Assembly: GCA_965235115.1 (NCBI GenBank)
Contig: OZ249436.1
Location: 21,888,001 to 21,952,000 of the forward strand
Origin: Laetmonice hystrix
Lineage: Eukaryota
DNA: 64,000 bases
Reading direction: 5' to 3'
Every line of letters begins with the position of its first letter. Position 1 is the first letter of the stretch. This document shows, piece after piece, positions 713 through 64,000 of this stretch. The notes beneath the pieces were generated by a model. It did no database searches. It saw only the letters and a program-made list of their open reading frames with translations, and had not been told where the DNA came from. The position numbers and the translations under genes are program-made.

Positions 713-757
713 AGGTACTTGAACCACTCGACACTTCCCCTGTTCAGTAAATCAGAG

Positions 758-15882: not shown

Positions 15883-16003
15883 AACTCACGTTTCTCCTCA
15901 TTCCACGTATAAATCTTTCGCCTTTTACTAAAGATTTCCGTGGGGAGGAACATTACAATGAGTCTATAGACGAATTTTTGCATCCCTGCTCTCAGAGCGG
16001 GGT
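15883..16003 (+). ncRNA. U5: U5 snRNA (variant B)
   Basis: Identical to 1804-1924. Confidence 0.97.
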
Positions 16004-16524
16004 AATTAAAAAAGGAAGAATAGTCTCCTAACGCAAACTGATTCAGACGACGAATGTTGTTTGTAAATAGGCCTAAATAAGATGGAAAAACAAAAATTGT
16101 AAAATAGTAAATGAAGAAATTAAGGTTACCGCAAGGAAATATATATTCCAGTGGTTTCAGAATTATTTTAGGAACATCTCCTCAAAGAGTGGGGAATTTA
16201 ATGCAAAGGAACTGCATGTTCTGCCTGAAGGCGGCATTATGTACACGTTACAGGTATAAAATGTTTTCTTTTTATTATAAATGGTTATTCTGCCTGGAAA
16301 GAAACAAATAACACAAACACGTAATGGGCCCCCGGACGGGCGCGTTGGCAACAGAGGTAGACCTACCTGCCTGTTGTCCAAAAGATTACCTATAAATAAA
16401 TTTTGCAGTTCTTGTTAAAAGGAGACTGCGCTTCAAGATACTCTATTCTTAGCATATTTTGTCATTTGATCTGGGCCATGGCACAAATTGGGCGCTTTTG
16501 CTGTGCAATAAGTCGGCCGGGGAG

Positions 16525-18534
16525 CAGTCTCGGTAACGCCAGACTCTCAGATAAGAGAGTCTGGGAGAGTTCCGATCTTTCATTGTTACCGCATGGTGGC
16601 GCGTCGAACGTTTAGGAACATAAGCGGCTCGAGGAGGCCAGAGAAAAACAACCGACCTTTTCGCTTCACGAAAATTCGCTTGATAAAATTGCTCGACAAG
16701 ACTACGTTTTACTAAGAAAAAGTCGTCATCATGTGTAAAATATGACTCTAGGCCCCCTATTTTGGCTATAGGCCTATAGGCCGACTGATTGCATTGTGCG
16801 GTGTAGAGCGAACACCTAGGCTGTGTGCATGTCAATTGTCCGTTGAAATTTGAAAAATCCTTAATACTATCTTACTCAGTTCCTAAAGTTCTATGGTTCA
16901 TACAATAAAGTTAATTGCTTATCAAACGACATATAGGCCCACTAGCCTATATGTAGGTGACCGATTAAACAGACGCTGTCTCAGGTTTGGAAATATGTGA
17001 TCTATGATATAGGCCCCTATGCCGTGCTGGGCAGTGGGCGGGCGCTTACTGGCTCACCCGCCGGGAGCGACCGGTGGGGGCCAGGGGCAGGGGAGCGAGG
17101 CGGCAGGCAGGCAAGACGCCAGAGTCCATGCAAGCAGGGATGATGCCGTCCTTGCAAAACGTCTCTAGACTAGAATATAAAACACACATTCCGCCCAATA
17201 GCGCTCCAATATTAGTTACGGGTTTTCCTATTAAACCGAGGCTGTCTCAGGCTTGAAAATATGGCAGACTCTGACTGCGTAAGGTCAGACTTGCAGGCTC
17301 AGCCCGGCGGGAGTGACCGAGCCCGAGGTGGCGGCCGGCGCTGCAGGCGGGGTAGGCCTACCGAAGTCTGTGCATGCATGCACTCGGAACACCGACGCTG
17401 CTTCTGATTGGCTGTTTCTAGGTCATATCCGGAGGCGAAGCAGGCCTCGGATGTATGAAGCGGCCATTTTCCCGTTTTTCGTGCAAAGTAGTGTAAAGCG
17501 GTCGCACATGAACACAAGAGTAAATAGTCGACCCCTACGCACAGGCACATAGGCCTTGTTCAAATATAATTTCTCAGCATACCTATACCTCGAATTTTCT
17601 ATCGTGGAGACAAAACAGTCTCTTCTTCACCTGGGAGGAAACCCAGATATTCTGACTTTGTATAAAGTCCGACACTAGGGAGTTCTACATTTTCGGCACG
17701 GCGGCAGCGCGCGAGTTTGTTGTTTACATCCGGGTCAGTGGTCCCGACCTAGCCACCCACCCACCCCACCCCCCAGCATGGCGACCTTCGTCGTACAGCC
17801 GAGATATGACGGAGTCAATCGTGGGTGAGCCGAGTGTGCATGCATGATGCCGCCGTTGGAGGCTTGTATAAAACGTCGCGAGAACGCTAAAACCAGCCGT
17901 TGATCAGCATGAGCAGACTTCCGCTAAATTTGACCAATCGGCTGCAAGACGACCGGATGCAGAATTCCTGTAGCCTACTTTTTGAAAGCCGCTTATGTCT
18001 CGGAACAACGTCACAAACAGTAGATACAAAAGGTTATGATCCACTATTTATTTTCTTCTATAATTTAATGTAATGTTTTGGCCATTTTCAATGTTTAAAA
18101 TAATTTCTGCGAATGTCTGCTTGGCATGGCAGGTTAGATATGCATGTTTCCGACAATAAAAACTCAATTTACGTATAGGTTGAATGATTAGATTTTATTT
18201 TATCGGAGCTTCTGTTACATGACCCCAGGTGGCACCACCAAATCGACCAGAATACAGGCCTGTGATACATAACATATTGGCTAAGATTTTCCAAGGAAAG
18301 TTAAGCAGATATTCTCTAATAATACACTGATATTATTGATCATAATAGTGAACTTTTTCTCTGTGGTATTTGATGAGCACATTCAGGGGGGTTATATCCA
18401 TTCTTGGCCCTAGATACATTCACTCCATACCTTTTTGAGGGACAACCAGCAGCCCATTGGCTAAATAGGGGGTCATGACCAAAAGCTTCCAGACCCTCTG
18501 CTAGGGCCGCTGAGGGTCTGGATAATCGAGACTG
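16525..18534. mobile_element. Copy of 2-kb DNA-transposon-like insert
   Basis: Same TIRs and TSD. Confidence 0.8.
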
Positions 18535-18877
18535 GCCGGGGAGCGGTTTGACACGTTGTCGCCAGACGGCCTTCAGTGCACAAGGCTAGGTGGCGCTGTG
18601 GTCACCGTAAGTAAACCAAGGTATTGCTGATAACAGAAGTTCATAAACATATTATGTTGTTTTATCATAACGAAGAAAAAGAAAAGTTCCTTCTTCTAAA
18701 TCAGCATTAATTTTATTGTGAAAATAGCAAGCTTGGATACCTTATCTCAGAACTAAGGGCATTATCCTTTCAGTATTCCCAAATGAAAAAATGAAACCTT
18801 CGTAGATGAAAATACACCATTCTTGATGAGTTAGGTACTTGAACCACTCGACACTTCCCCTCTTCAGTAAATCAGAG

Positions 18878-18998
18878 AACTCACGTTTCTCCTCATTCCA
18901 CGTATAAATCTTTCGCCTTTTACTAAAGATTTCCGTGGGGAGGAACATTACAATGAGTCTATAGACGAATTTTTGCATCCCTGCTCTCAGAGCGGGGT
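18878..18998 (+). ncRNA. U5: U5 snRNA (variant B)
   Basis: Identical to 1804-1924. Confidence 0.97.
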
Positions 18999-19519
18999 AA
19001 TTAAAAAAGGAAGAATAGTCTCCTAACGCAAACTGATTCAGACGACGAATGTTGTTTGTAAATAGGCCTAAATAAGATGGAAAAACAAAAATTGTAAAAT
19101 AGTAAATGAAGAAATTAAGGTTACCGCAAGGAAATATATATTCCAGTGGTTTCAGAATTATTTTAGGAACATCTCCTCAAAGAGTGGGGAATTTAATGCA
19201 AAGGAACTGCATGTTCTGCCTGAAGGCGGCATTATGTACACGTTACAGGTATAAAATGTTTTCTTTTTATTATAAATGGTTATTCTGCCTGGAAAGAAAC
19301 AAATAACACAAACACGTAATGGGCCCCCGGACGGGCGCGTTGGCAACAGAGGTAGACCTACCTGCCTGTTGTCCAAAAGATTACCTATAAATAAATTTTG
19401 CAGTTCTTGTTAAAAGGAGACTGCGCTTCAAGATACTCTATTCTTAGCATATTTTGTCATTTGATCTGGGCCATGGCACAAATTGGGCGCTTTTGCTGTG
19501 CAATAAGTCGGCCGGGGAG

Positions 19520-21529
19520 CAGTCTCGGTAACGCCAGACTCTCAGATAAGAGAGTCTGGGAGAGTTCCGATCTTTCATTGTTACCGCATGGTGGCGCGTC
19601 GAACGTTTAGGAACATAAGCGGCTCGAGGAGGCCAGAGAAAAACAACCGACCTTTTCGCTTCACGAAAATTCGCTTGATAAAATTGCTCGACAAGACTAC
19701 GTTTTACTAAGAAAAAGTCGTCATCATGTGTAAAATATGACTCTAGGCCCCCTATTTTGGCTATAGGCCTATAGGCCGACTGATTGCATTGTGCGGTGTA
19801 GAGCGAACACCTAGGCTGTGTGCATGTCAATTGTCCGTTGAAATTTGAAAAATCCTTAATACTATCTTACTCAGTTCCTAAAGTTCTATGGTTCATACAA
19901 TAAAGTTAATTGCTTATCAAACGACATATAGGCCCACTAGCCTATATGTAGGTGACCGATTAAACAGACGCTGTCTCAGGTTTGGAAATATGTGATCTAT
20001 GATATAGGCCCCTATGCCGTGCTGGGCAGTGGGCGGGCGCTTACTGGCTCACCCGCCGGGAGCGACCGGTGGGGGCCAGGGGCAGGGGAGCGAGGCGGCA
20101 GGCAGGCAAGACGCCAGAGTCCATGCAAGCAGGGATGATGCCGTCCTTGCAAAACGCCTCTAGACTAGAATATAAAACACACATTCCGCCCAATAGCGCT
20201 CCAATATTAGTTACGGGTTTTCCTATTAAACCGAGGCTGTCTCAGGCTTGAAAATATGGCAGACTCTGACTGCGTAAGGTCAGACTTGCAGGCTCAGCCC
20301 GGCGGGAGTGACCGAGCCCGAGGTGGCGGCCGGCGCTGCAGGCGGGGTAGGCCTACCGAAGTCTGTGCATGCATGCACTCGGAACACCGACGCTGCTTCT
20401 GATTGGCTGTTTCTAGGTCATATCCGGAGGCGAAGCAGGCCTCGGATGTATGAAGCGGCCATTTTCCCGTTTTTCGTGCAAAGTAGTGTAAAGCGGTCGC
20501 ACATGAACACAAGAGTAAATAGTCGACCCCTACGCACAGGCACATAGGCCTTGTTCAAATATAATTTCTCAGCATACCTATACCTCGAATTTTCTATCGT
20601 GGAGACAAAACAGTCTCTTCTTCACCTGGGAGGAAACCCAGATATTCTGACTTTGTATAAAGTCCGACACTAGGGAGTTCTACATTTTCGGCACGGCGGC
20701 TGCGCGCGAGTTTGTTGTTTACATCCGGGTCAGTGGTCCCGACCTAGCCACCCACCCACCCCACCCCCCAGCATGGCGACCTTCGTCGTACAGCCGAGAT
20801 ATGACGGAGTCAATCGTGGGTGAGCCGAGTGTGCATGCATGATGCCGCCGTTGGAGGCTTGTATAAAACGTCGCGAGAACGCTAAAACCAGCCGTTGATC
20901 AGCATGAGCAGACTTCCGCTAAATTTGACCAATCGGCTGCAAGACGACCGGATGCAGAATTCCTGTAGCCTACTTTTTGAAAGCCGCTTATGTCTCGGAA
21001 CAACGTCACAAACAGTAGATACAAAAGGTTATGATCCACTATTTATTTTCTTCTATAATTTAATGTAATGTTTTGGCCATTTTCAATGTTTAAAATAATT
21101 TCTGCGAATGTCTGCTTGGCATGGCAGGTTAGATATGCATGTTTCCGACAATAAAAACTCAATTTACGTATAGGTTGAATGATTAGATTTTATTTTATCG
21201 GAGCTTCTGTTACATGACCCCAGGTGGCACCACCAAATCGACCAGAATACAGGCCTGTGATACATAACATATTGGCTAAGATTTTCCAAGGAAAGTTAAG
21301 CAGATATTCTCTAATAATACACTGATATTATTGATCATAATAGTGAACTTTTTCTCTGTGGTATTTGATGAGCACATTCAGGGGGGTTATATCCATTCTT
21401 GGCCCTAGATACATTCACTCCATACCTTTTTGAGGGACAACCAGCAGCCCATTGGCTAAATAGGGGGTCATGACCAAAAGCTTCCAGACCCTCTGCTAGG
21501 GCCGCTGAGGGTCTGGATAATCGAGACTG
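19520..21529. mobile_element. Copy of 2-kb DNA-transposon-like insert
   Basis: Same TIRs and TSD. Confidence 0.8.
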
Positions 21530-21875
21530 GCCGGGGAGCGGTTTGACGCGTTGTCGCCAGACGGCCTTCAGTGCACAAGGCTATAGGTGGCGCTGTGGTC
21601 ACCGTAAGTAAACCAAGGTATATGCTGATAACAGAAGTACATAAACATATTAGCCTATGTTGTTTTATCATAACAAAGAAAAAGAAAAGTTCCTTCTTTT
21701 AAATCAGCATTTATTGTGAAAAATAGCAAGCTTGGATACCTTATCTCAGACCTAAGGCATTTTCCAGTAAGGACCCCCCCCCCCCCAAATGAAACATTCG
21801 TAGATGAAAAGACACCATTCTGGATGAGTTAGGTACTTGAACCACTCGACACTTCCCCTGTTCAGTAAATCAGAG

Positions 21876-21996
21876 AACTCACGTTTCTCCTCATTCCACG
21901 TATAAATCTTTCGCCTTTTACTAAAGATTTCCGTGGGGAGGAACATTACAATGAGTCTATAGACGAATTTTTGCATCCCTGCTCTCAGAGCGGGGT
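21876..21996 (+). ncRNA. U5: U5 snRNA (recombinant: A upstream flank, B 3' end)
   Basis: Same as 7797-7917. Confidence 0.97.
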
Positions 21997-22517
21997 AATT
22001 AAAAAAGGAAGAATAGTCTCCTAACGCAAACTGATTCAGACGACGAATGTTGTTTGTAAATAGGCCTAAATAAGATGGAAAAACAAAAATTGTAAAATAG
22101 TAAATGAAGAAATTAAGGTTACCGCAAGGAAATATATATTCCAGTGGTTTCAGAATTATTTTAGGAACATCTCCTCAAAGAGTGGGGAATTTAATGCAAA
22201 GGAACTGCATGTTCTGCCTGAAGGCGGCATTATGTACACGTTACAGGTATAAAATGTTTTCTTTTTATTATAAATGGTTATTCTGCCTGGAAAGAAACAA
22301 ATAACACAAACACGTAATGGGCCCCCGGACGGGCGCGTTGGCAACAGAGGTAGACCTACCTGCCTGTTGTCCAAAAGATTACCTATAAATAAATTTTGCA
22401 GTTCTTGTTAAAAGGAGACTGCGCTTCAAGATACTCTATTCTTAGCATATTTTGTCATTTGATCTGGGCCATGGCACAAATTGGGCGCTTTTGCTGTGCA
22501 ATAAGTCGGCCGGGGAG

Positions 22518-24527
22518 CAGTCTCGGTAACGCCAGACTCTCAGATAAGAGAGTCTGGGAGAGTTCCGATCTTTCATTGTTACCGCATGGTGGCGCGTCGA
22601 ACGTTTAGGAACATAAGCGGCTCGAGGAGGCCAGAGAAAAACAACCGACCTTTTCGCTTCACGAAAATTCGCTTGATAAAATTGCTCGACAAGACTACGT
22701 TTTACTAAGAAAAAGTCGTCATCATGTGTAAAATATGACTCTAGGCCCCCTATTTTGGCTATAGGCCTATAGGCCGACTGATTGCATTGTGCGGTGTAGA
22801 GCGAACACCTAGGCTGTGTGCATGTCAATTGTCCGTTGAAATTTGAAAAATCCTTAATACTATCTTACTCAGTTCCTAAAGTTCTATGGTTCATACAATA
22901 AAGTTAATTGCTTATCAAACGACATATAGGCCCACTAGCCTATATGTAGGTGACCGATTAAACAGACGCTGTCTCAGGTTTGGAAATATGTGATCTATGA
23001 TATAGGCCCCTATGCCGTGCTGGGCAGTGGGCGGGCGCTTACTGGCTCACCCGCCGGGAGCGACCGGTGGGGGCCAGGGGCAGGGGAGCGAGGCGGCAGG
23101 CAGGCAAGACGCCAGAGTCCATGCAAGCAGGGATGATGCCGTCCTTGCAAAACGTCTCTAGACTAGAATATAAAACACACATTCCGCCCAATAGCGCTCC
23201 AATATTAGTTACGGGTTTTCCTATTAAACCGAGGCTGTCTCAGGCTTGAAAATATGGCAGACTCTGACTGCGTAAGGTCAGACTTGCAGGCTCAGCCCGG
23301 CGGGAGTGACCGAGCCCGAGGTGGCGGCCGGCGCTGCAGGCGGGGTAGGCCTACCGAAGTCTGTGCATGCATGCACTCGGAACACCGACGCTGCTTCTGA
23401 TTGGCTGTTTCTAGGTCATATCCGGAGGCGAAGCAGGCCTCGGATGTATGAAGCGGCCATTTTCCCGTTTTTCGTGCAAAGTAGTGTAAAGCGGTCGCAC
23501 ATGAACACAAGAGTAAATAGTCGACCCCTACGCACAGGCACATAGGCCTTGTTCAAATATAATTTCTCAGCATACCTATACCTCGAATTTTCTATCGTGG
23601 AGACAAAACAGTCTCTTCTTCACCTGGGAGGAAACCCAGATATTCTGACTTTGTATAAAGTCCGACACTAGGGAGTTCTACATTTTCGGCACGGCGGCAG
23701 CGCGCGAGTTTGTTGTTTACATCCGGGTCAGTGGTCCCGACCTAGCCACCCACCCACCCCACCCCCCAGCATGGCGACCTTCGTCGTACAGCCGAGATAT
23801 GACGGAGTCAATCGTGGGTGAGCCGAGTGTGCATGCATGATGCCGCCGTTGGAGGCTTGTATAAAACGTCGCGAGAACGCTAAAACCAGCCGTTGATCAG
23901 CATGAGCAGACTTCCGCTAAATTTGACCAATCGGCTGCAAGACGACCGGATGCAGAATTCCTGTAGCCTACTTTTTGAAAGCCGCTTATGTCTCGGAACA
24001 ACGTCACAAACAGTAGATACAAAAGGTTATGATCCACTATTTATTTTCTTCTATAATTTAATGTAATGTTTTGGCCATTTTCAATGTTTAAAATAATTTC
24101 TGCGAATGTCTGCTTGGCATGGCAGGTTAGATATGCATGTTTCCGACAATAAAAACTCAATTTACGTATAGGTTGAATGATTAGATTTTATTTTATCGGA
24201 GCTTCTGTTACATGACCCCAGGTGGCACCACCAAATCGACCAGAATACAGGCCTGTGATACATAACATATTGGCTAAGATTTTCCAAGGAAAGTTAAGCA
24301 GATATTCTCTAATAATACACTGATATTATTGATCATAATAGTGAACTTTTTCTCTGTGGTATTTGATGAGCACATTCAGGGGGGTTATATCCATTCTTGG
24401 CCCTAGATACATTCACTCCATACCTTTTTGAGGGACAACCAGCAGCCCATTGGCTAAATAGGGGGTCATGACCAAAAGCTTCCAGACCCTCTGCTAGGGC
24501 CGCTGAGGGTCTGGATAATCGAGACTG
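22518..24527. mobile_element. Copy of 2-kb DNA-transposon-like insert
   Basis: Same TIRs and TSD. Confidence 0.8.
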
Positions 24528-24873
24528 GCCGGGGAGCGGTTTGACGCGTTGTCGCCAGACGGCCTTCAGTGCACAAGGCTATAGGTGGCGCTGTGGTCAC
24601 CGTAAGTAAACCAAGGTATATGCTGATAACAGAAGTACATAAACATATTAGCCTATGTTGTTTTATCATAACAAAGAAAAAGAAAAGTTCCTTCTTTTAA
24701 ATCAGCATTTATTGTGAAAAATAGCAAGCTTGGATACCTTATCTCAGACCTAAGGCATTTTCCAGTAAGGACCCCCCCCCCCCCAAATGAAACATTCGTA
24801 GATGAAAAGACACCATTCTGGATGAGTTAGGTACTTGAACCACTCGACACTTCCCCTGTTCAGTAAATCAGAG

Positions 24874-24994
24874 AACTCACGTTTCTCCTCATTCCACGTA
24901 TAAATCTTTCGCCTTTTACTAAAGATTTCCGTGGGGAGGAACATTACAATGAGTCTATAGACGAATTTTTGCATCCCTGCTCTAAGAGCGGGGT
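24874..24994 (+). ncRNA. U5: U5 snRNA (variant A)
   Basis: Identical to 758-878. Confidence 0.97.
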
Positions 24995-25919
24995 AAATGA
25001 ATAATGAAGAATAGTCTCCTAACGCAAACTGATTCAGACGAAGAATGTTGTTTATGAATAGGCCTAATTGGGATGGAAAATAAAAATTGTAACTAGTAAA
25101 TGAAGAAAAAAAGATTACCGCAAGGAGATACATTCCAGTGCCTTTCAGAATTATTTGAGGAACATCTCCTCAAAGGGCTGGGTATTTAAAGCGAGGGAAC
25201 TGAATGTTCTGCCTGAAGGCAGCATATAGGTACACGCTACAGTTAATGTTTTCTTTTTATCATAAATATCTATTCTGCCTGAAAAAAACCCATCAAACAC
25301 GCAATGTGCCCCCGGACGGGCGCGGTGACGACAGAGGTAGACCTACCTTCCCGTTGTCCTAAAGATTACCTACACACAGAAGCCTTAGAGCGTCTGTACT
25401 CTTTTCATGGTCTCGATGTATGGATCAATTTGACAAAACCAATGCGTCTAAGACAAATAAATTTTGCAGTCGTTCTTCAAGGCAGACTGCCCTTCAAGAT
25501 GCTCTATTCTTAGCATATTTTGTCATTTGATCTGGGCCATGGCGTAAATTGGGCACTTTTGCTGTGCAATAAGTCGGCCGGGGAGCGGTTTGACACGTTG
25601 TCGCCAGACGGCCTTCAGTGCACAAGGCTAGGTGGCGCTGTGGTCACCGTAAGTAAACCAAGGTATTGCTGATAACAGAAGTTCATAAACATATTATGTT
25701 GTTTTATCATAACAAAGAAAAAGAAAAGTTCCTTCTTCTAAATCAGCATTAATTTTATTGTGAAAATAGCAAGCTTGGATACCTTATCTCAGAACTAAGG
25801 GCATTATCCTTTCAGTATTCCCAAATGAAAAAATGAAACCTTCGTAGATGAAAATACACCATTCTTGATGAGTTAGGTACTTGAACCACTCGACACTTCC
25901 CCTCTTCAGTAAATCAGAG

Positions 25920-32936: not shown

Positions 32937-33000
32937 AACTCACGTTTCTCCTCATTCCACGTATAAATCTTTCGCCTTTTACTAAAGATTTCCGTGGGGA
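32937..33000 (+). pseudogene. U5: 5' part of a U5 gene interrupted by the retrotransposon
   Basis: U5 sequence through loop 1 to ...TTCCGTGGGGA, then an abrupt switch to non-array sequence. Confidence 0.95.
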
Positions 33001-33103
33001 TTTGGAGAATACGGAGAATTTGGGTTGATTTGGATCGATCAGTTGTTAGATTTTGGTGGTTTTCTCCTTTTGGAGTCGTAGGTTGGTCAGTTGCCTTGAA
33101 ACT

Positions 33104-33324
33104 ACCCTTGGGACCGGGTCATAATAGGTCCTTGGTTTCGTTTCTAGGCTGACCTTTCATACTGTCCGCGGGACCCGGAATATAATAGGTCCTTTTCTAT
33201 TTGCATCCGTGGGGACCCGGATTAAAATAGGTCTCTCGTTCGCTTGGGTATCTGGTGGTAGCTTCCAGCCCAACGTGATAATTCTTTATGTTAATCCGTA
33301 GAGGTCCGGAATAAAATAGGCCTC
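33104..33324 (+). other. Four tandem predicted H-type RNA pseudoknots in the retrotransposon 5' UTR
   Basis: Motifs at 33104-33131, 33165-33192, 33205-33236 and 33295-33324 have two interleaved stems with compensatory changes and an A-rich loop. Confidence 0.7.
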
Positions 33325-33440
33325 CTTTTCCTTTCCTTCTCTCTTCTTTCACCGTGTAAATGGTCTTAGTTGCCGTCACGGTGTAAGCCAACCTCTCCCC
33401 TTTTCAGTTAATTTTGTTTTCCGCCTGCCACCCCGGTGGC

Positions 33441-35027
33441 ATGGCGACAGGCATGGAATTTGATTCGGACGACACGGATTTGGCCCTGGTTATAGACGAT
33501 AATATGGCTTCAACAACTTCTCCTCTACCTGTTGCGAGGAGCAGTCAGGTGGCAGAAACGTCGGGCGTACAATCTGGAGGCATCTCCAAAGAGTTAGCCC
33601 ATCATAGTTTTCAGAGGGATTTGATCTTGTCCTCTGATGAGGACGGATGGTCGGTCCAGAAAAAGAAAACAAAAGGTGGTCGGAAGGTGGGAGGGAAAGT
33701 TTTCCCTACGTCGAAGCCAGATGGCGCGGCACCCCCATCCAAGACCGTTAAATTGAATTCAGGGCGCTCAAAGCCAGTAAAAGTATCGAGAGTAGGGCAA
33801 GACCCTGTCTTCCTGAAAAAACCCTTCTCAATTGAGGAGCAAAAGGTAAGGGCTGAAAGCCTCATTGAGAGAAGTGCGGTTTTTAAGTTTGTTGACCGGG
33901 GTAGCCCCATCTTGCGGGATGATTTTGCGGAGCCCTTGTCGGCACTGATCGATCTGAAGGAAGTTTTGTTTTTGGCCAGTATAGGTCGGGGTGACGAGTG
34001 GCACGTTACCCTGACAAATACTGCAGCGAAGGCAGCCCTCTTAACGAGTGATGGGTTTTGTGTGGGGGGACGTAGGTGCTACGTCAAAGAGGATGACACG
34101 CTTAAGGGTCGAGGAGGGACTTTCTGCTACCCGGTAGTGCGTGTACATTGGAATAGTCCTTCTTTACCTTTGAATGTCGTGCCAGATATCCTGGGGGTCC
34201 ATGGTGACATAATATCTGATGTCTTTGAAGAGTCGTCATCATCGCGATTCCCAGGGGTGTTAACTGGGGTCCGCAAACTAGTGTTTAAAATCCCTACTAA
34301 AGATAAGAGAGCCTTTTTGGAGGATCTCCCACATTTGCTTCACCCGGAGTTTGATGGGGTGAAGTTTCGCTTGTTGGTGGTGGTCAACGGCCGGAAACCT
34401 TTGTGTTTGAGGTGCCAGAAGATGGGCCATCAATCCAAAAAATGCCTCGAGACTGAGTACTGTTCGTTTTGTCGTCTCTATGGCCATAGTACGGGGGTGT
34501 GTCCTAGGAAGGGTTCCTATGCGGCAAAGCTCTTAAGTGTCCCTCAGCAAGAGGCAGATCCTGTCCCGCCGGAAGTACCGGTGGTGGAGGACGAGACGCC
34601 GCAAGGTGCAGCGGAGGGTGGTCAACAGGCTGAGCCTGTTGAGGTCCCACAGGGAGGTGATGGTGGAGAGGAGTCCACTCCTATCGATTTGTCTAGCGAA
34701 TCCATGGGACGGAAGTCTGAGCATCCCGTGCAAAAACATCAGGCCCCTATTAAAGTTTCCGAGGGCGACGTGGAACCCCCCCAACCCATTGTAGAGGGCG
34801 ACGTACCTCAGAAACTCGAGCCGGCCCCTCAGCGGGCAAGTAGGAGATCGGATAGAGGGAAACGCTCTCATGTTCCCCAGGGAGCCGTAGCGGGAGCCTT
34901 GGCAGGGCTTGCTCCTAGAGAGACCTCAGCTCCGCCAACTCTGAGGGCGAAGCTAGAACCCCATCTTGGGCCCAAGAGTCTTTTGGGGGCAGAAGGGCTT
35001 AAAGAGGGCTCTTTCCAGCCTCCCTGA
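33441..35027 (+). CDS. Retrotransposon ORF1, nucleic-acid-binding (gag-like) protein
   Basis: Open frame from 33414 (TTG); first ATG at 33441. Two CX2CX4HX4C knuckles (CLRCQKMGHQSKKC, CSFCRLYGHSTGVC), basic N-terminal patch, low-complexity C-terminus; typical of Tx1 ORF1. Confidence 0.9.
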   Translation: MATGMEFDSDDTDLALVIDDNMASTTSPLPVARSSQVAETSGVQSGGISKELAHHSFQRDLILSSDEDGWSVQKKKTKGGRKVGGKVFPTSKPDGAAPPSKTVKLNSGRSKPVKVSRVGQDPVFLKKPFSIEEQKVRAESLIERSAVFKFVDRGSPILRDDFAEPLSALIDLKEVLFLASIGRGDEWHVTLTNTAAKAALLTSDGFCVGGRRCYVKEDDTLKGRGGTFCYPVVRVHWNSPSLPLNVVPDILGVHGDIISDVFEESSSSRFPGVLTGVRKLVFKIPTKDKRAFLEDLPHLLHPEFDGVKFRLLVVVNGRKPLCLRCQKMGHQSKKCLETEYCSFCRLYGHSTGVCPRKGSYAAKLLSVPQQEADPVPPEVPVVEDETPQGAAEGGQQAEPVEVPQGGDGGEESTPIDLSSESMGRKSEHPVQKHQAPIKVSEGDVEPPQPIVEGDVPQKLEPAPQRASRRSDRGKRSHVPQGAVAGALAGLAPRETSAPPTLRAKLEPHLGPKSLLGAEGLKEGSFQPP

Positions 35028-35125
35028 GTTTATCCATTTCTTAGGTCTTATCGCACATTTTAGTTAAAATACCTTTTGAATCAATTATTTGCATTTCCAA
35101 CGCCTGACAAATTACAAATTACCTG

Positions 35126-38100
35126 ATGGCGAAGTCGTTCAAAATCACTTCACTGAACTGTAAAGGGTTACAGAATCCTATAAAGTGTGATCTTTTGGGC
35201 AGTTATCTGGCCACTAGATCTTTTGATGTCCTGTTCCTACAAGAGACACATGTGGGTGGGGCAGAGGATCAGGATCGTGTGGAGTCTGCCTGCGGTGGAT
35301 CCGGTGTTTTTAGCTTTGGCCAGTCAGATAGTTCCGGAGTGGCGGTGATTTTTAGACGAGGCCTTGAGTATGACATTAAATCGTCTAGATGCGATGACAG
35401 TGGCAGGGTCACTTCAGTAGTGGCGGAAATAAATGGCCAGGTTTTTAATTTTATCAATATATACGCTCCAAATATTGCTGTCCAGAGGAAAGCTTTTATT
35501 TCAGGCTTGGCAGACTTTGTCATGTTTGAAACAGCTGTAATTTTGGCTGGAGATTTTAACTTTATAGAGGATGTCTTCATGGATAAGAAAGGTGGGAACC
35601 CAAAGAGAGGTCTGGGGGGCAAAGTGGAAATGGAGGCCCTGGCCGGCAGATTTAATTTATTGGATGTCTTCAGACATAAAAACCCGTCGAGAAAGGAATT
35701 CTCCTTTTCTGGGGCAGGAGTAGCCACCAGGCTTGACCGGTTTTATGTTACCAAGGATTTAGTCGAGAATGTTGAGAATGTTGGGTATGTTCCCTGTTCG
35801 TATTCTGATCATAAGATAGTTGACATGCAGCTATCTTGGAAGAGTATATCTGAGGACTTTCGTCATTCAGGTCTTTGGAAATGTAATGTAACGGTTTTAA
35901 AGGATATTGATTTTGTGCGAGACATGGAAATGGAGTGGCAGGTTTTAAGCCAGTCCAAAGTCAAAGATATGGTTTGGTGGGAAGACTGTAAAGTCCGTTT
36001 TAAATCTTTAATAATTAAACATTCCAAGCGGTTGGCTCGACAACGTAGACAACATGTTTTGCAGCTTGAGAAGTCGATTCTTTTCTTTCAAGCATTGGCT
36101 GATGGGGGCTTGGAGGATTTGGAATGTGTAGTAGATGGTCTTAAACTGGACTTGGAGCATTTGTTAGAAGAAAAACTGAAAGGGGCTAGGATAAGATCTC
36201 GTGTTCAACACGTGGAGAATGACGAAAAGCCTTCCCGTTTTTTCCTGAAGCAGGAGAAAATGAATGGAAGCGCGAAGGTTATTTCCGAACTAGAGGTTGA
36301 AGGTCGAGTCATAACTGATAAAATGGACATAGTGGCAGCTTGTCGTAACTTTTATAAATGTCTGTATACGAAGGAAGACATTGATCGAGAGGTAGCACAG
36401 AAATACCTGGATCGTCTTCCTCGGTTGGCCTCTGAAGGTAGAGCAGAGTGCGAGGGGTTTTTAAGTAAGGAGGAAGTATTTTCTTCCCTAAAGTCCATGA
36501 AGGATGGGAAAAGTCCGGGTGAGGACGGCCTCCCCCAGGAATTTTATGTTGGATTTTTTCATCTGTTTGGTGGTGATTTAGTCAATGTTTTTAATCAAGC
36601 CTTTCACGCAGGCGTCTTAGGCGAGTCCCTTAGGACAGGAGTCATTAGATTGATCTGTAAAGATGTAACAAAAAAAGAGAATTTAGGTTACTGGAGGCCT
36701 ATTTCTCTTCTTAACACCGATTATAAACTTATTTCAAAGTCCATTTGTAATAGAATGGTCAAGGTGTTGGATGAAATAGTACATGAAGATCAGACGTGTG
36801 CCATTAAGGGAAGGACTATACATGATAGTTTACACTTAATTCGATCTGTCATTGACTATGCCAATGACCATGATATACCGTGTGGGATTTTGAGTCTAGA
36901 TCAGGAAAAGGCCTTTGATAGGGTTTCTCACGAGTTCCTTTTCATGGCTCTACGAAGTTATGGTTTTGGCCCCGATTTGATTAGATGGGTCCGCCTTTTG
37001 TATACGGACATTAGTTCAAGGGTGTTTGTCAATGGTATACTGTCAAATGAGTTTGAAGTCCAACGTTCGGTGAGACAAGGTTGTGGTCTGTCTCCCCTTT
37101 TATATGTTTTAGTTATCGAACCACTTGCAGTTATGATGAGAGCTGACTTCCGTATGGAAGGGCTCAAAATCCCTGGCTCACCAAGGACGGTTCAACTTGT
37201 GCACTATGCCGACGACATGAACCCAGTTGTTACATCGGAGAGAGCAGTGAGAGTCGCTCTGGAAATTGTTAATGAGTTTGGGCGGGCATCTGGGGCCAAG
37301 CTTAACAGACGCAAGTCAAAAGGCATGTGGGTTGGGAAGTGGAGGCACCGAAAGGGTGTTTTGCATGGTATTGATTTTAGTTGCGAAAGTTTAAAGTGTC
37401 TGGGAGTAGTTTTTGGTAGACACCAAAGTGAGTGGCAAAAATTGAATTGGGAACCGCTGGTCGAGAAATTGGCTAAAGTATTGGAAGGCTGGAAAGTTCG
37501 TAAAATGACGCTAGCAGGCAGAGCAGTTATTCTGAACACGGTGGCCTTATCCAAATTGTGGCACCGTGGACAAGTCATTCATATGAATGATAAGTACATT
37601 AAGAAGTTCGAGCGTATTATCTACAAGTTTCTTTGGCCTGGTGGGGCGGAGAGGGTCCAACGAAGAGTCATGGTTCTGGATAGAGTCAGGGGAGGTGTTG
37701 GCCTCGTCGACCTTGGCTCGAAGTTGGAATCATTTCGAATTAGCCATATTGGCAAGTTATTGAGAAGCCAGCTAGCCCAGAAATGGTCCGAGTTTGCTGT
37801 TTTTTATTGTGGTTTTCAGTTGAGGGCAGAAAGGCCCGAGTTTGGGAGTAATTCTAGACCTCATGCTTGGAACATTTCTCTCTTTTACGAAAGGTGTCTT
37901 CGGGAATGGAAGAAGTTTAATGAAAGTCAGAATGTCTCTTTGCAGAGCCTTACAAGTGGCGACATTTACAAAGTGTTGACCAAGAAATGGGTCATTGTGC
38001 CACTGGTTGCAACCAAGTCTGTGAACATTTTTGTTGATTTTAGTGTTTGTTGGAATAACTGTTGCCACTGGTTCCTCCCGTCGGAAATCAAAGAATTTGC

Positions 38101-38593
38101 CTGGCGGGTAGGGCAACATATACTCCCTGTTAATGACAAACTTCACAGGCACAACAAACGTTTACCTGTAAAGTGTGAACTATGTGGGGCGGGCAGGGAA
38201 ACTTTAGATCACATTTTATTGTTGTGTCCAGTTGTACGTCCGGTTGCAAGGGAAGTGGAGGTCTTGATCTCAGAGATCTTGGATGCTCCATTTTTCCTGG
38301 ACAGAGAAGTAATTTTATTCAATATTTTACCTCGGATGAGGGATCAGACACGGGGTCTGGTGTTGCTTCTCTTGAATTGTTTTAAGAGGGAGGTCTGGCA
38401 TCATCGTAATAGGGTTAAGTTGGGCTTGGCCAGACCTAACCCTGAAAGAGTGTGGTCGGCCCTGATGGCAGGGCTCAAGTGGAGGTTTTCTATTGATGTG
38501 TGTCGCCCTCAAAATACTAAATGGGTAGAAGCATGGGCAGTTGGAAAGGTTTGTGCGGGAAAAGTGGGTCAGGAATTTGTCTTCCTCTTGTAG
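35126..38593 (+). CDS. Retrotransposon ORF2: APE-type endonuclease, reverse transcriptase, C-terminal zinc finger (1155 aa)
   Basis: APE motifs SLNCKGL, FLQETH, NIYAPN, GDFN, RLDRFY, SDH. RT motifs KSPGEDG, WRPISLLNTDYK, LDQEKAFDRV, RQGCGLSPLLY, YADD. C-terminal CELC...HILLLC. Confidence 0.97.
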   Translation: MAKSFKITSLNCKGLQNPIKCDLLGSYLATRSFDVLFLQETHVGGAEDQDRVESACGGSGVFSFGQSDSSGVAVIFRRGLEYDIKSSRCDDSGRVTSVVAEINGQVFNFINIYAPNIAVQRKAFISGLADFVMFETAVILAGDFNFIEDVFMDKKGGNPKRGLGGKVEMEALAGRFNLLDVFRHKNPSRKEFSFSGAGVATRLDRFYVTKDLVENVENVGYVPCSYSDHKIVDMQLSWKSISEDFRHSGLWKCNVTVLKDIDFVRDMEMEWQVLSQSKVKDMVWWEDCKVRFKSLIIKHSKRLARQRRQHVLQLEKSILFFQALADGGLEDLECVVDGLKLDLEHLLEEKLKGARIRSRVQHVENDEKPSRFFLKQEKMNGSAKVISELEVEGRVITDKMDIVAACRNFYKCLYTKEDIDREVAQKYLDRLPRLASEGRAECEGFLSKEEVFSSLKSMKDGKSPGEDGLPQEFYVGFFHLFGGDLVNVFNQAFHAGVLGESLRTGVIRLICKDVTKKENLGYWRPISLLNTDYKLISKSICNRMVKVLDEIVHEDQTCAIKGRTIHDSLHLIRSVIDYANDHDIPCGILSLDQEKAFDRVSHEFLFMALRSYGFGPDLIRWVRLLYTDISSRVFVNGILSNEFEVQRSVRQGCGLSPLLYVLVIEPLAVMMRADFRMEGLKIPGSPRTVQLVHYADDMNPVVTSERAVRVALEIVNEFGRASGAKLNRRKSKGMWVGKWRHRKGVLHGIDFSCESLKCLGVVFGRHQSEWQKLNWEPLVEKLAKVLEGWKVRKMTLAGRAVILNTVALSKLWHRGQVIHMNDKYIKKFERIIYKFLWPGGAERVQRRVMVLDRVRGGVGLVDLGSKLESFRISHIGKLLRSQLAQKWSEFAVFYCGFQLRAERPEFGSNSRPHAWNISLFYERCLREWKKFNESQNVSLQSLTSGDIYKVLTKKWVIVPLVATKSVNIFVDFSVCWNNCCHWFLPSEIKEFAWRVGQHILPVNDKLHRHNKRLPVKCELCGAGRETLDHILLLCPVVRPVAREVEVLISEILDAPFFLDREVILFNILPRMRDQTRGLVLLLLNCFKREVWHHRNRVKLGLARPNPERVWSALMAGLKWRFSIDVCRPQNTKWVEAWAVGKVCAGKVGQEFVFLL

Positions 38594-38871
38594 AATAGTT
38601 CACCCCCCTTTTTTTAAAGGATATGGTCGGTGCATATTGAAGGATTGTTGAAATGGTGGAGTATTCCTTGAGTGTGCAGGTTTTAATGTTTGAGTGTTGC
38701 CACTTGGGAGTTTTTAACTAGTCAACTCTAGCCTTTTTCAATTTTCCTTTTGTACTTAGTTTGCTCTTTACTATATTGTCTGGCATGTAGGCTTTAGGGT
38801 CTGGTGCCAGGGTTATCGTTAAGAGTAGTTATTGGTTTTTAGAGTCTTTTATAAAAAAAAAAAAAAAAAAA

Positions 38872-38945
38872 AAAGATTTCCGTGGGGAGGAACATTACAA
38901 TGAGTCTATAGACGAATTTTTGCATCCCTGCTCTAAGAGCGGGGT
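38872..38945 (+). pseudogene. U5: 3' part of the interrupted U5 gene (variant A)
   Basis: AAAGATTTCCGTGGGGAGGAAC, Sm site and 3' hairpin resume right after the poly(A). Confidence 0.95.
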
Positions 38946-58584: not shown

Positions 58585-58932
58585 GCCGGGGAGCGGTTTG
58601 ACGCGTTGTCGCCAGACGGCCTTCAGTGCACAAGGCTATAGGTGGCGCTGTGGTCACCGTAAGTAAACCAAGGTATATGCTGATAACAGAAGTACATAAA
58701 AATATTAGCCTATGTTGTTTTATCATAACAAAGAAAAAGAAAAGTTCCTTCTTCTAAATCAGCATTTATTGTGAAAAATAGCAAGCTTGGATACCTTATC
58801 TCAGACCTAAGGCATTTTCCAGTAAGGACCCCCCCCCCCCCCCAAATGAAACATTCGTAGATGAAAAGACACCATTCTGGATGAGTTAGGTACTTGAACC
58901 ACTCGACACTTCCCCTGTTCAGTAAATCAGAG

Positions 58933-59053
58933 AACTCACGTTTCTCCTCATTCCACGTATAAATCTTTCGCCTTTTACTAAAGATTTCCGTGGGGAGGAA
59001 CATTACAATGAGTCTATAGACGAATTTTTGCATCCCTGCTCTAAGAGCGGGGT
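58933..59053 (+). ncRNA. U5: U5 snRNA (variant A); downstream flank cut ~85 bp after the gene
   Basis: Identical to 758-878. Confidence 0.96.
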
Positions 59054-59137
59054 AAATGAATAATGAAGAATAGTCTCCTAACGCAAACTGATTCAGACGA
59101 AGAATGTTGTTTATGAATAGGCCTAATTGGGATGGAA

Positions 59138-59697
59138 AATTTTATTCAATATTTTACCTCGGATGAGGGATCAGACACAAGGTCTAGTGTTACTTCTCTT
59201 AAATTGTTTTAAGAGGGAGGTCTGGCATCATCGTAATAGGGTTAAGTTGGGCTTGGCCAGACCTAACCCTGAGAGAGTGTGGTCGGCCCTGATGGCAGGG
59301 CTCAAGTGGAGGTTTTCTATTGATGTGTGTCGCCCTCAAAATACAAAATGGGTAGAAGCATGGGCAGTTGGAAAGGTTTGTGCGGGAAAAGTGGGTGAGG
59401 AATTTGTCTTCCTCTTGTAGAATAGTTCACCCCCCTTTTTTTAAAGGATATGGTCGGTGCATATTGAAGGATTGTTGAAATGGTGGAGTATTCCTTGAGT
59501 GTGCAGGTTTTAATGTTTGAGTGTTGCCACTTGGGAGTTTTTAACTAGTCAACTCTAGCCTTTTTCAATTTTCCTTTTGTACTTAGTTTGCTCTTTACTA
59601 TATTGTCCGGCATGTAGGCTTTAGGGTCTGGTGCCAGGGTTATCGTTAAGAGTAGTTATTGGTTTTTAGAGTCTTTTATAAATAAAATAAAAAAAAA
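59138..59697 (+). mobile_element. 5'-truncated copy (~560 bp) of the retrotransposon: ORF2 C-terminus, 3' UTR, A-rich tail
   Basis: Colinear with 38311-38871; tail ATAAATAAAATAAAAAAAAAAAA is followed by the U5 target GATTTCCGTGGG. Confidence 0.95.
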
Positions 59698-60153
59698 AAA
59701 GATTTCCGTGGGATTTGGAGAATACGGAGAATTTGGGTTGATTTGGATCGATCAGTTGTTAGCTTTTGGTGGTTTTCTCCTTTTGGAGTCGTAGGTTGGT
59801 CAGTTGACTTGAAACTACCCTTGGGACCGGGTCATAATAGGTCCTTGGTTTCGTTTCTAGGCTGACCTTTCATACTGTCCGCGGGACCCGGAATATAATA
59901 GGTCCTTTTCTATTTGCATCCGTGGGGACCCGGATTAAAATAGGTCTCTCGTTCGCTTGGGTATCTGGTGGTAGCTTCCAGCCCAACGTGATAATTCTTT
60001 ATGTTAATCCGTAGAGGTCCGGAATAAAATAGGCCTCCTTTTCCTTTCCTTCTCTCTTCTTTCACCGTGTAAATGGTCTTAGTTGCCGTCACGGTGTAAG
60101 CCAACCTCTCCCCTTTTCAGTTAATTTTGTTTTCCGCCTGCCACTCCGGTGGC

Positions 60154-61740
60154 ATGGCGACAGGCATGGAATATGATTCTGACGACACGGATTTGGCCCT
60201 GGTTATAGACGATAATATGGCTTCAACAACTTCTCCTCTACCTGTTGCGAGGAGCAGTCAGGTGGCAGAAACGTCGGGCGTACAATCTGGAGGCATCTCC
60301 AAAGAGTTAGCCCATCATAGTTTTCAGAGGGATTTGATCTTGTCCTCTGATGAGGACGGATGGTCGGTCCAGAAAAAGAAAACAAAAGGTGGTCGGAAGG
60401 TGGGAGGGAAAGTTTTCCCTACGTCGAAGCCAGATGGTGCGGCACCCCCATCCAAGACCGTTAAATTGAATTCAGGGCGCTCAAAGCCAGTAAAAGTATC
60501 GAGAGTAGGGCAAGACCCTGTCTTCCTGAAAAAAAACCTTCTCAATTGAGGAGCAAAGGGTAAGGGCTGAAAGCCTCATTGAGAGAAGTGCGGTTTTTAA
60601 GTTTGTTGACCGGGGTAGCCCCATCTTGCGGGATGATTTTGCGGAGCCCTTGTCGGCACTGATCGATCTGAAGGAAGTTTTGTTTTTGGCCAGTATAGGT
60701 CGGGGTGACGAGTGGCACGTTACCCTGACAAATACTGCAGCGAAGGCAGCCCTCTTAACGAGTGATGGGTTTTGTGTGGGGGGACGTAGGTGCTACGTCA
60801 AAGAGGATGACACGCTTAAGGGTCGAGGAGGGACTTTCTGCTACCCGGTAGTGCGTGTACATTGGAATAGTCCTTCTTTACCTTTGAATGTCGTGCCAGA
60901 TATCCTGGGGGTCCATGGTGACATAATATCTGATGTCTTTGAAGAGTCGTCATCATCGCGATTCCCAGGGGTGTTAACTGGGGTCCGCAAACTAGTGTTT
61001 AAAATCCCTACTAAAGATAAGAGAGCCTTTTTGGAGGATCTCCCACATTTGCTTCACCCTGAGTTTGATGGGGTGAAGTTTCGCTTGTTGGTGGTGGTCA
61101 ACGGCCGGAAACCTTTGTGTTTGAGGTGCCAGAAGATGGGCCATCAATCCAAAAAATGCCTCGAGACTGAGTACTGTTCGTTTTGTCGTCTCTATGGCCA
61201 TAGTACGGGGGTGTGTCCTAGGAAGGGTTCCTATGCGGCAAAGCTCTTAAGTGTCCCTCAGCAAGAGGCAGATCCTGTCCCGCCGGAAGTACCGGTGGTG
61301 GAGGACGAGACGCCGCAAGGTGCAGCGGAGGGTGGTCAACAGGCTGAGCCTGTTGAGGTCCCACAGGGAGGTGATGGTGGAGAGGAGTCCACTCCTATCG
61401 ATTTGTCTAGCGAATCCATGGGACGGAAGTCTGAGCATCCCGTGCAAAAACATCAGGCCCCTATTAAAGTTTCCGAGGGCGACGTGGAACCCCCCAACCC
61501 ATTTTAGAGGGCGACGTACCTCAGAAACTCGAGCCGGCCCCTCAGCGGGCAAGTAGGAGATCGGATAGAGGGAAACGCTCTCATGTTCCCCAGGGAGCCG
61601 TAGCGGGAGCCTTGGCAGGGCTTGCTCCTAGAGAGACCTCAGCTCCGCCAACTCTGAGGGCGAAGCTAGAACCCCATCTTGGGCCCAAGAGTCTTTTGGG
61701 GGCAGAAGGGCTTAAAGAGGGCTCTTTCCAGCCTCCCTGA
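60154..61740 (+). pseudogene. ORF1 of second copy, frameshifted as assembled
   Basis: +1 at the A-run 60529-60536 and -1 at the C-run 61490-61495 relative to the first copy; the ORF track splits it into 60127-60549 and 60626-61507. Confidence 0.75.
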
Positions 61741-61838
61741 GTTTATCCATTTCTTAGGTCTTATCGCACATTTTAGTTAAAATACCTTTTGAATCAATTA
61801 TTTGCATTTCCAACGCCTGACAAATTACAAATTACCTG

Positions 61839-64000
61839 ATGGCGAAGTCGTTCAAAATCACTTCACTGAACTGTAAAGGGTTACAGAATCCTATAAAGTG
61901 TGATCTTTTGGGCAGTTATCTGGCCACTAGATCTTTTGATGTCCTGTTCCTACAAGAGACACATGTGGGTGGGGCAGAGGATCAGGATCGTGTGGAGTCT
62001 GCCTGCGGTGGATCCGGTGTTTTTAGCTTTGGCCAGTCAGATAGTTCCGGAGTGGCGGTGATTTTTAGACGAGGCCTTGAGTATGACATTAAATCGTCTA
62101 GATGCGATGACAGTGGCAGGGTCACTTCAGTAGTGGCGGAAATAAATGGCCAGGTTTTTAATTTTATCAATATATACGCTCCAAATATTGCTGTCCAGAG
62201 GAAAGCTTTTATTTCAGGCTTGGCTGACTTTGTCATGTTTGAAAGAGCTGTAATTTTGGCTGGAGATTTTAACTTTATAGAGGATGTCTTCATGGATAAG
62301 AAAGGTGGGCACCCAAAGAGAGGTCTGGGGGGCAAAGTGGAAATGGAGGCCCTGGCCGGCAGATTTAATTTATTGGATGTCTTCAGACATAAAAACCCGT
62401 CGAGAAAGGAATTCTCCTTTTCTGGGGCAGGAGTAGCCACCAGGCTTGACCGGTTTTATGTTACCAAGGATTTAGTCGAGAATGTTGAGAATGTTGGGTA
62501 TGTTCCCTGTTCGTATTCTGATCATAAGATAGTTGACATGCAGCTATCTTGGAAGAGTATATCTGAGGACTTTCGTCATTCAGGTCTTTGGAAATGTAAT
62601 GTAACGGTTTTAAAGGATATTGATTTTGTGCGAGACATGGAAATGGAGTGGCAGGTTTTAAGCCAGTCCAAAGTCAAAGATATGGTTTGGTGGGAAGACT
62701 GTAAAGTCCGTTTTAAATCTTTAATAATTAAACATTCCAAGCGGTTGGCTCGACAACGTAGACAACATGTTTTGCAGCTTGAGAAGTCGATTCTTTTCTT
62801 TCAAGCATTGGCTGATGGGGGCTTGGAGGATTTGGAAGGTGTAGTAGATGGTCTTAAACTGGACTTGGAGCATTTGTTAGAAGAAAAACTGAAAGGGGCT
62901 AGGATAAGATCTCGTGTTCAACACGTGGAGAATGACGAAAAGCCTTCCCGTTTTTTCCTGAAGCAGGAGAAAATGAATGGAAGCGCGAAGGTTATTTCCG
63001 AACTAGAGGTTGAAGGTCGAGTCATAACTGATAAAATGGACATAGTGGCAGCTTGTCGTAACTTTTATAAATGTCTGTATACGAAGGAAGACATTGATCG
63101 AGAGGTAGCACAGAAATACCTGGATTGTCTTCCTCGGTTGGCCTCTGAAGGTAGAGCAGGGTGCGAGGGGTTTTTAAGTAAGGAGGAAGTATTTTCTTCC
63201 CTAAAGTCCATGAAGGATGGGAAAAGTCCGGGTGAGGACGGCCTCCCCCAGGAATTTTATGTTGGATTTTTTCATCTGTTTGGTGGTGATTTAGTCAATG
63301 TTTTTAATCAAGCCTTTCACGCAGGCGTCTTAGGCGAGTCCCTTAGGACAGGAGTCATTAGATTGATCTGTAAAGATGTAACAAAAAAAGAGAATTTAGG
63401 TTACTGGAGGCCTATTTCTCTTCTTAACACCGATTATAAACTTATTTCAAAGTCCATTTGTAATAGAATGGTCAAGGTTTTGGATGAAATAGTACATGAA
63501 GATCAGACGTGTGCCATTAAGGGAAGGACTATACATGATAGTTTACACTTAATTCGATCTGTCATTGACTATGCCAATGACCATGATATACCGTGTGGGA
63601 TTTTGAGTCTAGATCAGGAAAAGGCCTTTGATAGGGTTTCTCACGAGTTCCTTTTCATGGCTCTACGAAGTTATGGTTTTGGCCCCGATTTGATTAGATG
63701 GGTCCGCCTTTTGTATACGGACATTAGTTCAAGGGTGTTTGTCAATGGTATACTGTCAAATGAGTTTGAAGTCCAACGTTCGGTGAGACAAGGTTGTGGT
63801 CTGTCTCCCCTTTTATATGTTTTAGTTATCGAACCACTTGCAGTCATGATGAGAGCTAACTTCCGTATGGAAGGGCTCAAAATCCCTGGCTCACCAAGGA
63901 CGGTTCAACTTGTGCACTATGCCGACGACATGAACCCAGTTGTTACATCGGAGAGAGCAGTGAGAGTCGCTCTGGAAATTGTTAATGAGTTTGGGCGGGC
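61839..64000 (+). CDS. ORF2 of second copy (APE + RT through YADD), partial at window end
   Basis: ATG GCG AAG TCG at 61839; constant offset to the first copy at 61982 and 63671 (no net indel). Its absence from the ORF track fits a frame with no stop before the window edge. Confidence 0.88.
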   Translation, partial: MAKSFKITSLNCKGLQNPIKCDLLGSYLATRSFDVLFLQETHVGGAEDQDRVESACGGSGVFSFGQSDSSGVAVIFRRGLEYDIKSSRCDDSGRVTSVVAEINGQVFNFINIYAPNIAVQRKAFISGLADFVMFERAVILAGDFNFIEDVFMDKKGGHPKRGLGGKVEMEALAGRFNLLDVFRHKNPSRKEFSFSGAGVATRLDRFYVTKDLVENVENVGYVPCSYSDHKIVDMQLSWKSISEDFRHSGLWKCNVTVLKDIDFVRDMEMEWQVLSQSKVKDMVWWEDCKVRFKSLIIKHSKRLARQRRQHVLQLEKSILFFQALADGGLEDLEGVVDGLKLDLEHLLEEKLKGARIRSRVQHVENDEKPSRFFLKQEKMNGSAKVISELEVEGRVITDKMDIVAACRNFYKCLYTKEDIDREVAQKYLDCLPRLASEGRAGCEGFLSKEEVFSSLKSMKDGKSPGEDGLPQEFYVGFFHLFGGDLVNVFNQAFHAGVLGESLRTGVIRLICKDVTKKENLGYWRPISLLNTDYKLISKSICNRMVKVLDEIVHEDQTCAIKGRTIHDSLHLIRSVIDYANDHDIPCGILSLDQEKAFDRVSHEFLFMALRSYGFGPDLIRWVRLLYTDISSRVFVNGILSNEFEVQRSVRQGCGLSPLLYVLVIEPLAVMMRANFRMEGLKIPGSPRTVQLVHYADDMNPVVTSERAVRVALEIVNEFGR

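Follow-up and report, generated by a model that had tools for sequence, protein, structure and literature searches.

Stacks of mobile elements around one target-site duplication have been published for R1, Utopia, SINEU-3/Tx1-Mar and P. Tandem R1 copies in Drosophila 28S rDNA are separated by the normal 14-bp duplication, and Stage and Eickbush inferred that a new R1 copy goes into the duplication flanking the resident one on its 5' side (PMC2718515). McGurk and Barbash put it generally, that by inserting, an element leaves its target usable and adds another, and gave a double-insertion model (10.1101/158386). Tandem SINEU-3 copies were described as 'sandwiching a TSD' and read as sequential insertions, and the legend of Figure 3 in the same paper (Kojima 2015) places U5 snRNA among the known Tx1 targets (PMC4494074). 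For human L1, 5'-truncated insertions with microhomology, deletions of 1-10 kb and small tandem or very long duplications are on record, and breakpoints next to endonuclease sites have also been described (PMC2912911, PMC11702581, PMC2881922). Stacking is a known and expected behaviour of site-specific retrotransposons.

We describe here a stack in a tandem array of U5 snRNA genes of Laetmonice hystrix. As read from the assembly sequence alone, it appears to be a real, young head-to-tail tandem of a U5-targeting Tx1-type LINE, and a look-alike cut site at its left breakpoint may be a new detail worth pursuing.

The U5 array and its intact element

The analysed DNA, referred to as the window, comprises 64,000 nt of contig OZ249436.1 (21,888,001-21,952,000), with the stack at its right end. 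Over the whole window Rfam gave 25 U5 matches, which form the tandem array, and no match to any other family. The U5 genes have two types of flank, A and B, and in all 10 A-type units upstream of the stack the A-type unit is followed by a B-type unit, at a distance of 1,046 nt where no element intervenes. Downstream of the nick, A- and B-type sequence first differ at 63 nt. The last A-type U5 in the window (58932-59053) is identical to the copy at 757-878, as it is to the other A-type copies. Its 3' part plus flank (59000-59140) is 100% identical in 10 other units.

The array also varies along its length. In the region 757-28914 it shows a higher-order repeat of ∼14.08 kb, in which the units of 757-11840 recur at 14836-25919 with common variants, among them a hybrid upstream region (4798 and 18877). 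Six of the 14 long spacers, namely all six from the 32938 unit onward, are shortened by a 21-nt deletion, and the length of a C-run varies among units from 10 to 15 nt.

One A-type U5 carries an intact copy of the element, which we used as the reference:

33000-38875, + strand: intact reference copy within an A-type U5, with ORFs, A-tail and U5 duplication
33414-35027, + strand: ORF1 of the intact copy, 537 aa
35126-38593, + strand: ORF2 of the intact copy, 1,155 aa, with APE-type endonuclease, reverse transcriptase (RT) and zf-RVT

ORF2 matched PF03372, PF00078 and PF13966, and ORF1 had no Pfam match at E 0.001. The copy ends in a 22-nt A-tail and is flanked by a 16-nt duplication of U5 (32984-32999 and 38872-38887). 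It thus combines an ORF1, an N-terminal APE-type endonuclease, RT and a C-terminal Cys/His region with an A-tail and a target-site duplication, and carries no LTR, as L1/Tx1-type non-LTR elements do. Its 3' UTR contains neither AATAAA nor ATTAAA. In the window the element sequence is found at just three places: 33000-38875, 59138-59680 and 59713-64000. From the 0.5% difference between its long copies, the family looks young.

Anatomy and left breakpoint of the stack

The order of parts at the stack is A-type flank, AAT, 3' piece of the element, A-tail, 15 nt of U5 and a long second copy:

58932-59053, + strand: intact A-type U5 snRNA gene (Rfam RF00020, 91.7 bits)
58980-59140, + strand: U5 nick position to left breakpoint, 161 nt; left arm of a hypothetical duplication if the same U5 was targeted
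59054-59140, + strand: retained A-type downstream flank, 87 nt, identical to 879-965
59138-59140, + strand: left-junction microhomology AAT, 3 nt, common to the flank and to the element at 38311-38313
59141-59680, + strand: 5'-truncated short copy, body of 540 nt, corresponding to 38314-38853 of the intact copy with 9 substitutions
59681-59700, + strand: A-tail of the short copy, broken by two T's and sharing its last three A's with the U5 piece
59698-59712, + strand: U5 piece of 15 nt, the target-site duplication between the copies
59713-64000, + strand: long second copy with full 5' end, 99.5% identical to 33000-37287, running past the window edge
60154-61738, + strand: long-copy ORF1 region; two homopolymer indels relative to the intact copy, and a frame that stops after 131 aa
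61839-63998, + strand: long-copy ORF2, with no stop over the 720 aa up to the window edge

The initial annotation had described a flank joined to ORF2 sequence through AAT at 59138-59140, a 560-bp 3' fragment with an A-tail, and only a piece of U5 before the next element at 59714. We recovered all three: array and element have exactly 3 nt in common, the fragment consists of the 540-nt body (59141-59680) and a tail to about 59700, and the U5 letters occupy 59698-59712 with the long copy starting at 59713 +/-1 (the start of the intact copy is ambiguous against U5). The short copy holds the last 92 codons of ORF2, open and with the stop kept, and a 260-nt 3' UTR; with its tail and the U5 piece (59138-59712) it aligns to 38311-38886 of the intact copy at 97.9% identity. 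The U5 spacer is the same segment as the duplication of the intact copy minus one G (15 versus 16 nt), and the 5' junctions of the long and the intact copy differ by one G. The junction between the two copies therefore holds the normal target-site duplication alone (15 nt, 59698-59712), which is what a double insertion leaves. Long and intact copies are 99.5% identical across 4.3 kb, and the body of the long copy is expected to end near 65,566, beyond 64000. The indels that break its ORF1 lie at 60529-60536 and 61490 and may reflect slippage or consensus error.

We then compared the left breakpoint with the U5 nick site. Random joins of array and element would overlap by at least 3 nt with P = 0.055, and we therefore rejected the 3-nt overlap as evidence by itself. 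The position of the break is more specific: array position 965/966 is the sole T|AAAA step in 879-1850 (972 nt), a stretch in which the weaker motif T|AAA occurs 12 times, and the full 4-kb array period has 13 T|AAAA steps. Read on the top strand, the L1 nick motif is T|AAAA (PMC11702581). From -3 to +7 the breakpoint and the U5 nick site agree in 8 of 10 letters, and 3 of the 957 positions score this well; this comparison range was picked after the site had been seen, and over the 9 ranges tried the share of positions ran from 0.3% to 6.7%. This is moderate evidence that the left breakpoint may have been made by the endonuclease at a near-cognate of the U5 nick site. An endonuclease-made left end would favour a two-cut deletion, or an insertion at 965/966, over a later random deletion.

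The two copies differ from the intact copy to unequal degrees. In the short copy 6 of 61 synonymous and 2 of 215 replacement sites differ, and in ORF2 of the long copy 3 of 471 and 6 of 1689, so that dS is 0.098 versus 0.006, each measured on a different region. From these dS values, with the 3' end of the long copy lying beyond the window, the short copy probably came from another source copy and diverged under selection in an active lineage. Divergence was rejected as a clock for the two copies, since the changes of the short copy are mostly synonymous and would thus have arisen in that active lineage. The 3' UTR of the short copy differs from that of the intact copy at 1 of 260 sites, similar to the long copy, and 5 of the 9 changes in the short copy fall within 23 nt (P about 0.001-0.006 under uniform placement). 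Because of this close 3' UTR and this clustering, a single mosaic lineage that includes the 3' end of the long copy, beyond the window, is also possible. Each of the five differences in the cluster (59179-59201) is an A in the short piece where the intact copy has G, and most of them fall on third codon positions; the cluster could be a patch from a divergent subfamily or the result of RNA/cDNA editing.

Competing readings of the stack

The likelihoods given below are our judgement and were not computed. As the probable explanation, held with some reserve, we favour two insertions at one U5 site, the second in the duplication made by the first, with the 5' end of the short copy joined by microhomology at a look-alike site. 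In such a history a U5-specific Tx1/L1-type LINE would have inserted by target-primed reverse transcription on two separate occasions. The first insertion would duplicate about 15-16 nt of U5, so that the target survives on both sides, and the second copy would enter one of the two duplicates, which would give the order element, A-tail, 15-nt U5 piece, element. Reverse transcription of the upstream copy would stop early, at 540 nt, and the end of the short cDNA would be joined via the 3 nt of microhomology to a DNA end that the endonuclease cut at a near-cognate site, 161 nt past the preceding U5 nick. Two events are supported by the intact copy, whose 16-nt U5 duplication is the same site and segment as the spacer, by the unequal divergence of the two copies, by the one-G difference between the 5' junctions and by the U1 stacks of relatives. 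The anatomy, the duplication lengths, the divergence pattern and the site similarity are shown by the sequence; the two events, the endonuclease origin of the left break, and a loss or a duplication of array DNA, are what we infer from it. That a regenerated site can be targeted again, as had been proposed earlier, accounts for the 15-nt spacer, agrees with the mechanism published for R1 and SINEU-3 tandems and has a parallel in the same type of junction in U1-targeting relatives.

The favoured reading has two variants. If the next B-type U5 was primed, the second cut would have removed 885 bp, and the order of the insertions is open; this variant has a substantial chance, although one below even. 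If instead the same A-type U5 was used, 161 nt would be duplicated and nothing lost, and the short copy would have come first, since with a long copy already in place the flank to be duplicated would have been moved away; we regard this variant as doubtful. The right arm of such a duplication would fall outside the window. The earlier proposal that recognition needs only sequence downstream of the nick applies just if the long copy was second; for R1, Stage and Eickbush inferred the opposite order. If the short copy did come first, this would mean that upstream of the nick an A-tail suffices in place of the U5 loop sequence.

How much of the array is missing depends on the same choice. The arithmetic behind the earlier figure of about 885 bp is correct: with the next B-type U5 as the target, as expected from the 10/10 succession of A- and B-type units, the equivalent of 966-1850 is computed to be absent. 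A loss of this size is possible, with the right flank lying beyond 64000, but it is not established, and since the left breakpoint may be an endonuclease cut of its own, it is one option. Two alternatives without loss fit the window, namely the 161-nt duplication at the same A-type U5 and an insertion at the near-cognate site 59140/41. We hold it tentatively possible, with the chances clearly against it, that no array DNA was lost and that the short copy sits 161 nt past the U5 target, at a near-cognate site, from an RNA that carried U5 sequence; the U5 may have been carried as 3' read-through or as part of a ready-made dimer. If this were true, the element would provide itself with new target sites next to a U5 gene left intact, and stacks would grow with no U5 copy lost to the host. 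At stake is a second cut at a look-alike site that deletes a U5 promoter and half of the gene, versus a gene that is spared because its target is duplicated or brought along.

A U1-targeting relative (L082) has a similar layout: an intact U1 with 73 nt of flank, the element, an A-tail and the 3' part of U1. Its U1 arms have 163 nt in common, its right arm lacks ∼1.3 kb found behind another intact U1, and two further 3' ends of its family are not in U1. We rejected this locus as proof of a long duplication, as it is ambiguous. Its 5' end (L082, 3036-3400 and 9961-10170) joins 73 nt downstream of the intact U1, where a hairpin with a short inversion has its apex. Within the 100 nt that follow, some stretches resemble histone H4 and H3 start codons, although no tool gave a match there.

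Could the stack have arisen in one event? In that case a tandem read-through RNA, comprising the 3' end of one copy, its A-tail, the U5 piece and the whole next copy, would have been reverse-transcribed at the near-cognate 59140/41 and truncated 540 nt into its upstream copy. The 3-nt overlap would then be an ordinary target loss of 0-3 nt, no array would be missing and no U5 disrupted. Such an origin accounts for a left breakpoint exactly on a near-cognate nick site, short target losses with microhomology are typical of 5'-truncated L1 (PMC11702581), and R1 uses off-target sites with 4-9 bp of identity around the nick (PMC2718515). Read-through is plausible, since the 3' UTR of the intact copy has no AATAAA or ATTAAA, and potential source tandems are common in relatives. 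However, it requires an off-target insertion as well as a dimer RNA of >6.4 kb, both visible A-tails of the U5-targeting family abut the exact U5 site, and no source tandem was found in the window; we consider it improbable. Somewhat less probable still are two insertions of which the upstream copy was once longer or complete and later lost its 5' part, together with array DNA, in a microhomology-mediated deletion (up to 6.2 kb, or 6,215 bp, if a full-length copy stood in the next B-type U5). The 3-nt overlap is consistent with end-joining repair and the array has undergone other non-homologous changes, such as the 21-nt spacer deletion, but a later deletion does not predict a break on the sole T|AAAA step and near-cognate site, and the family looks young.

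An artefact of assembly or consensus, in which the tandem is a false join within the repeat array, is very unlikely in our judgement. Although the locus lies in a tandem array and the first 1.8 kb of the long copy show three homopolymer length differences, the joins overlap by merely 3 and 15 nt, which is too short for overlap-based false joins. Moreover, the short copy has 9 private substitutions, mostly synonymous, and a tail of its own, and the same type of junction occurs three times in another assembly. Of the words sampled from 58900-60600, shares of 0.68-0.70 were found in three runs of one sample (maybe the assembly's own) and 0.05 in two more; 71.6% of the 31-mers of this region recur elsewhere in the window, close to the shares in the three runs, so that these shares are what the recurring words alone would yield and lend the junctions no support. 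Nor are the run shares evidence against them, because contigs drop rare variants. No RNA runs were listed among the runs sharing words of this region. The least credible reading, to which we give almost no weight, is a circular DNA copy that was closed via the target-site duplication, opened in ORF2 and joined at 59140, so that the stack would be one permuted element. Closure at the duplication yields the order 3' end, A-tail, U5 piece, 5' end, and the 3' UTR of the short copy is as near to the intact copy as the long copy is (1/260). The synonymous divergence of the two parts nevertheless differs about 15-fold, our literature search found no such permuted circular forms, and the same junction in relatives is explained by double insertion, the neighbours there being of different families. 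The competing readings predict different sequence after about 65,000-65,600.

Relatives and known systems

A protein search with the element returned 121 relatives (best 39% identity). We aligned the query with the top 15 relatives and fetched 136 loci, 80 metagenome and 56 genome. A quick tree was built from the 53 RT rows left after removal of near-duplicates from 90 RT stretches (query included); it placed the element in an 11-row group with an SH-aLRT of 99, and the whole tree contained no named Tx1 or Keno sequence. Within this group three members end in an A-tail followed by U2 (L001, L083 and L085), one starts in U2 (L005) and two end in U1 (L082 and L084). The flank of L087 is U1-like by eye, with no Rfam match, and L003, L007 and L081 had no Rfam match. 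In the 30 of the 136 loci scanned with Rfam there was no U5 match.

Stacks are also present at U1. In one assembly (G002) the U1 core motif occurs 22 times in 11 loci, and 8 of these occurrences follow the A-tail of an element. In five of the 8 the rest of U1 follows, and in three only 13-16 nt of U1 are present before another element begins. The two elements that meet at L086:8818 each possess ORF1 and ORF2, and their DNA is 65-69% alike. Of a short and a long neighbour, the short one comes first at L088:9534 and the long one at L093:7271. With about 31% in ORF2, these U1-targeting elements are further removed and do not fall in the 11-row group. According to these loci, elements of this kind routinely stack at a single snRNA site, and both short/long arrangements occur. 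G002 is titled a bacterial MAG and carries U1/U2/5S arrays, so this is presumably DNA of the host animal.

Several other features of these loci were seen. Short elements lie at the U1 5' end in L088 (8508-9533) and L093 (7287-8550), where they are 1.0-1.3 kb long, and in L098 from 11176; those of L088 and L093 resemble the long U1-targeting LINEs in their 3' end alone, and the short U1-inserted elements look like non-autonomous partners. Loci L099, L100, L103, L105 and L128 (CAXXMW01...) contain Tx1-like head-to-tail arrays with a period of about 6.4-6.6 kb and 97-99.8% identity; Rfam found no gene in the five Tx1-like array loci scanned, and a LINE-derived satellite is possible. Among L081-L136, many contigs titled as bacterial MAGs carry animal-type LINEs, several of them with U1/U2/5S arrays, which points to binned host DNA.

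In the literature searched, a set without most subscription papers and Repbase reports, a U5-specific LINE appeared just in the Kojima 2015 legend. Keno, Tx1-Mar and SINEU-3 (PMC4494074) resemble the stack in that a Tx1-type two-ORF LINE targets a spliceosomal snRNA gene, and the nearest relatives fetched for the U5-targeting element likewise end in an A-tail followed by U2 or U1. Keno differs in targeting U2. Identity with Keno was rejected, as both visible 3' ends abut U5 and Rfam found only U5 in the window. Utopia-1_NVit (PMC4640811) likewise stacks, as tandem insertions in U2, but has a restriction-like endonuclease, and Dada-U1 (PMC3706591) also forms tandems in one snRNA gene, but is a DNA transposon. 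The L1 cases differ in being human, mostly from cultured cells, and at dispersed targets rather than in an snRNA array.

R1 is also an APE-type site-specific LINE in a multicopy RNA gene, its tandem copies are separated by the usual target-site duplication, its truncated copies show 1-5 nt of microhomology and its off-target sites resemble the target around the nick. It differs in belonging to the R1 clade and targeting 28S, and ancestral-type R1 variation is confined to the end of the 14-bp duplication. In L. hystrix, by contrast, 161 nt separate the left junction from the nick site upstream of it, and 885 nt from the next one downstream. The stack exemplifies the known rule that site-specific elements which duplicate their target keep it usable and stack, and at the same time it is a natural experiment on how a U5-specific LINE, of a kind little described so far, recognises its target and has its ends joined.
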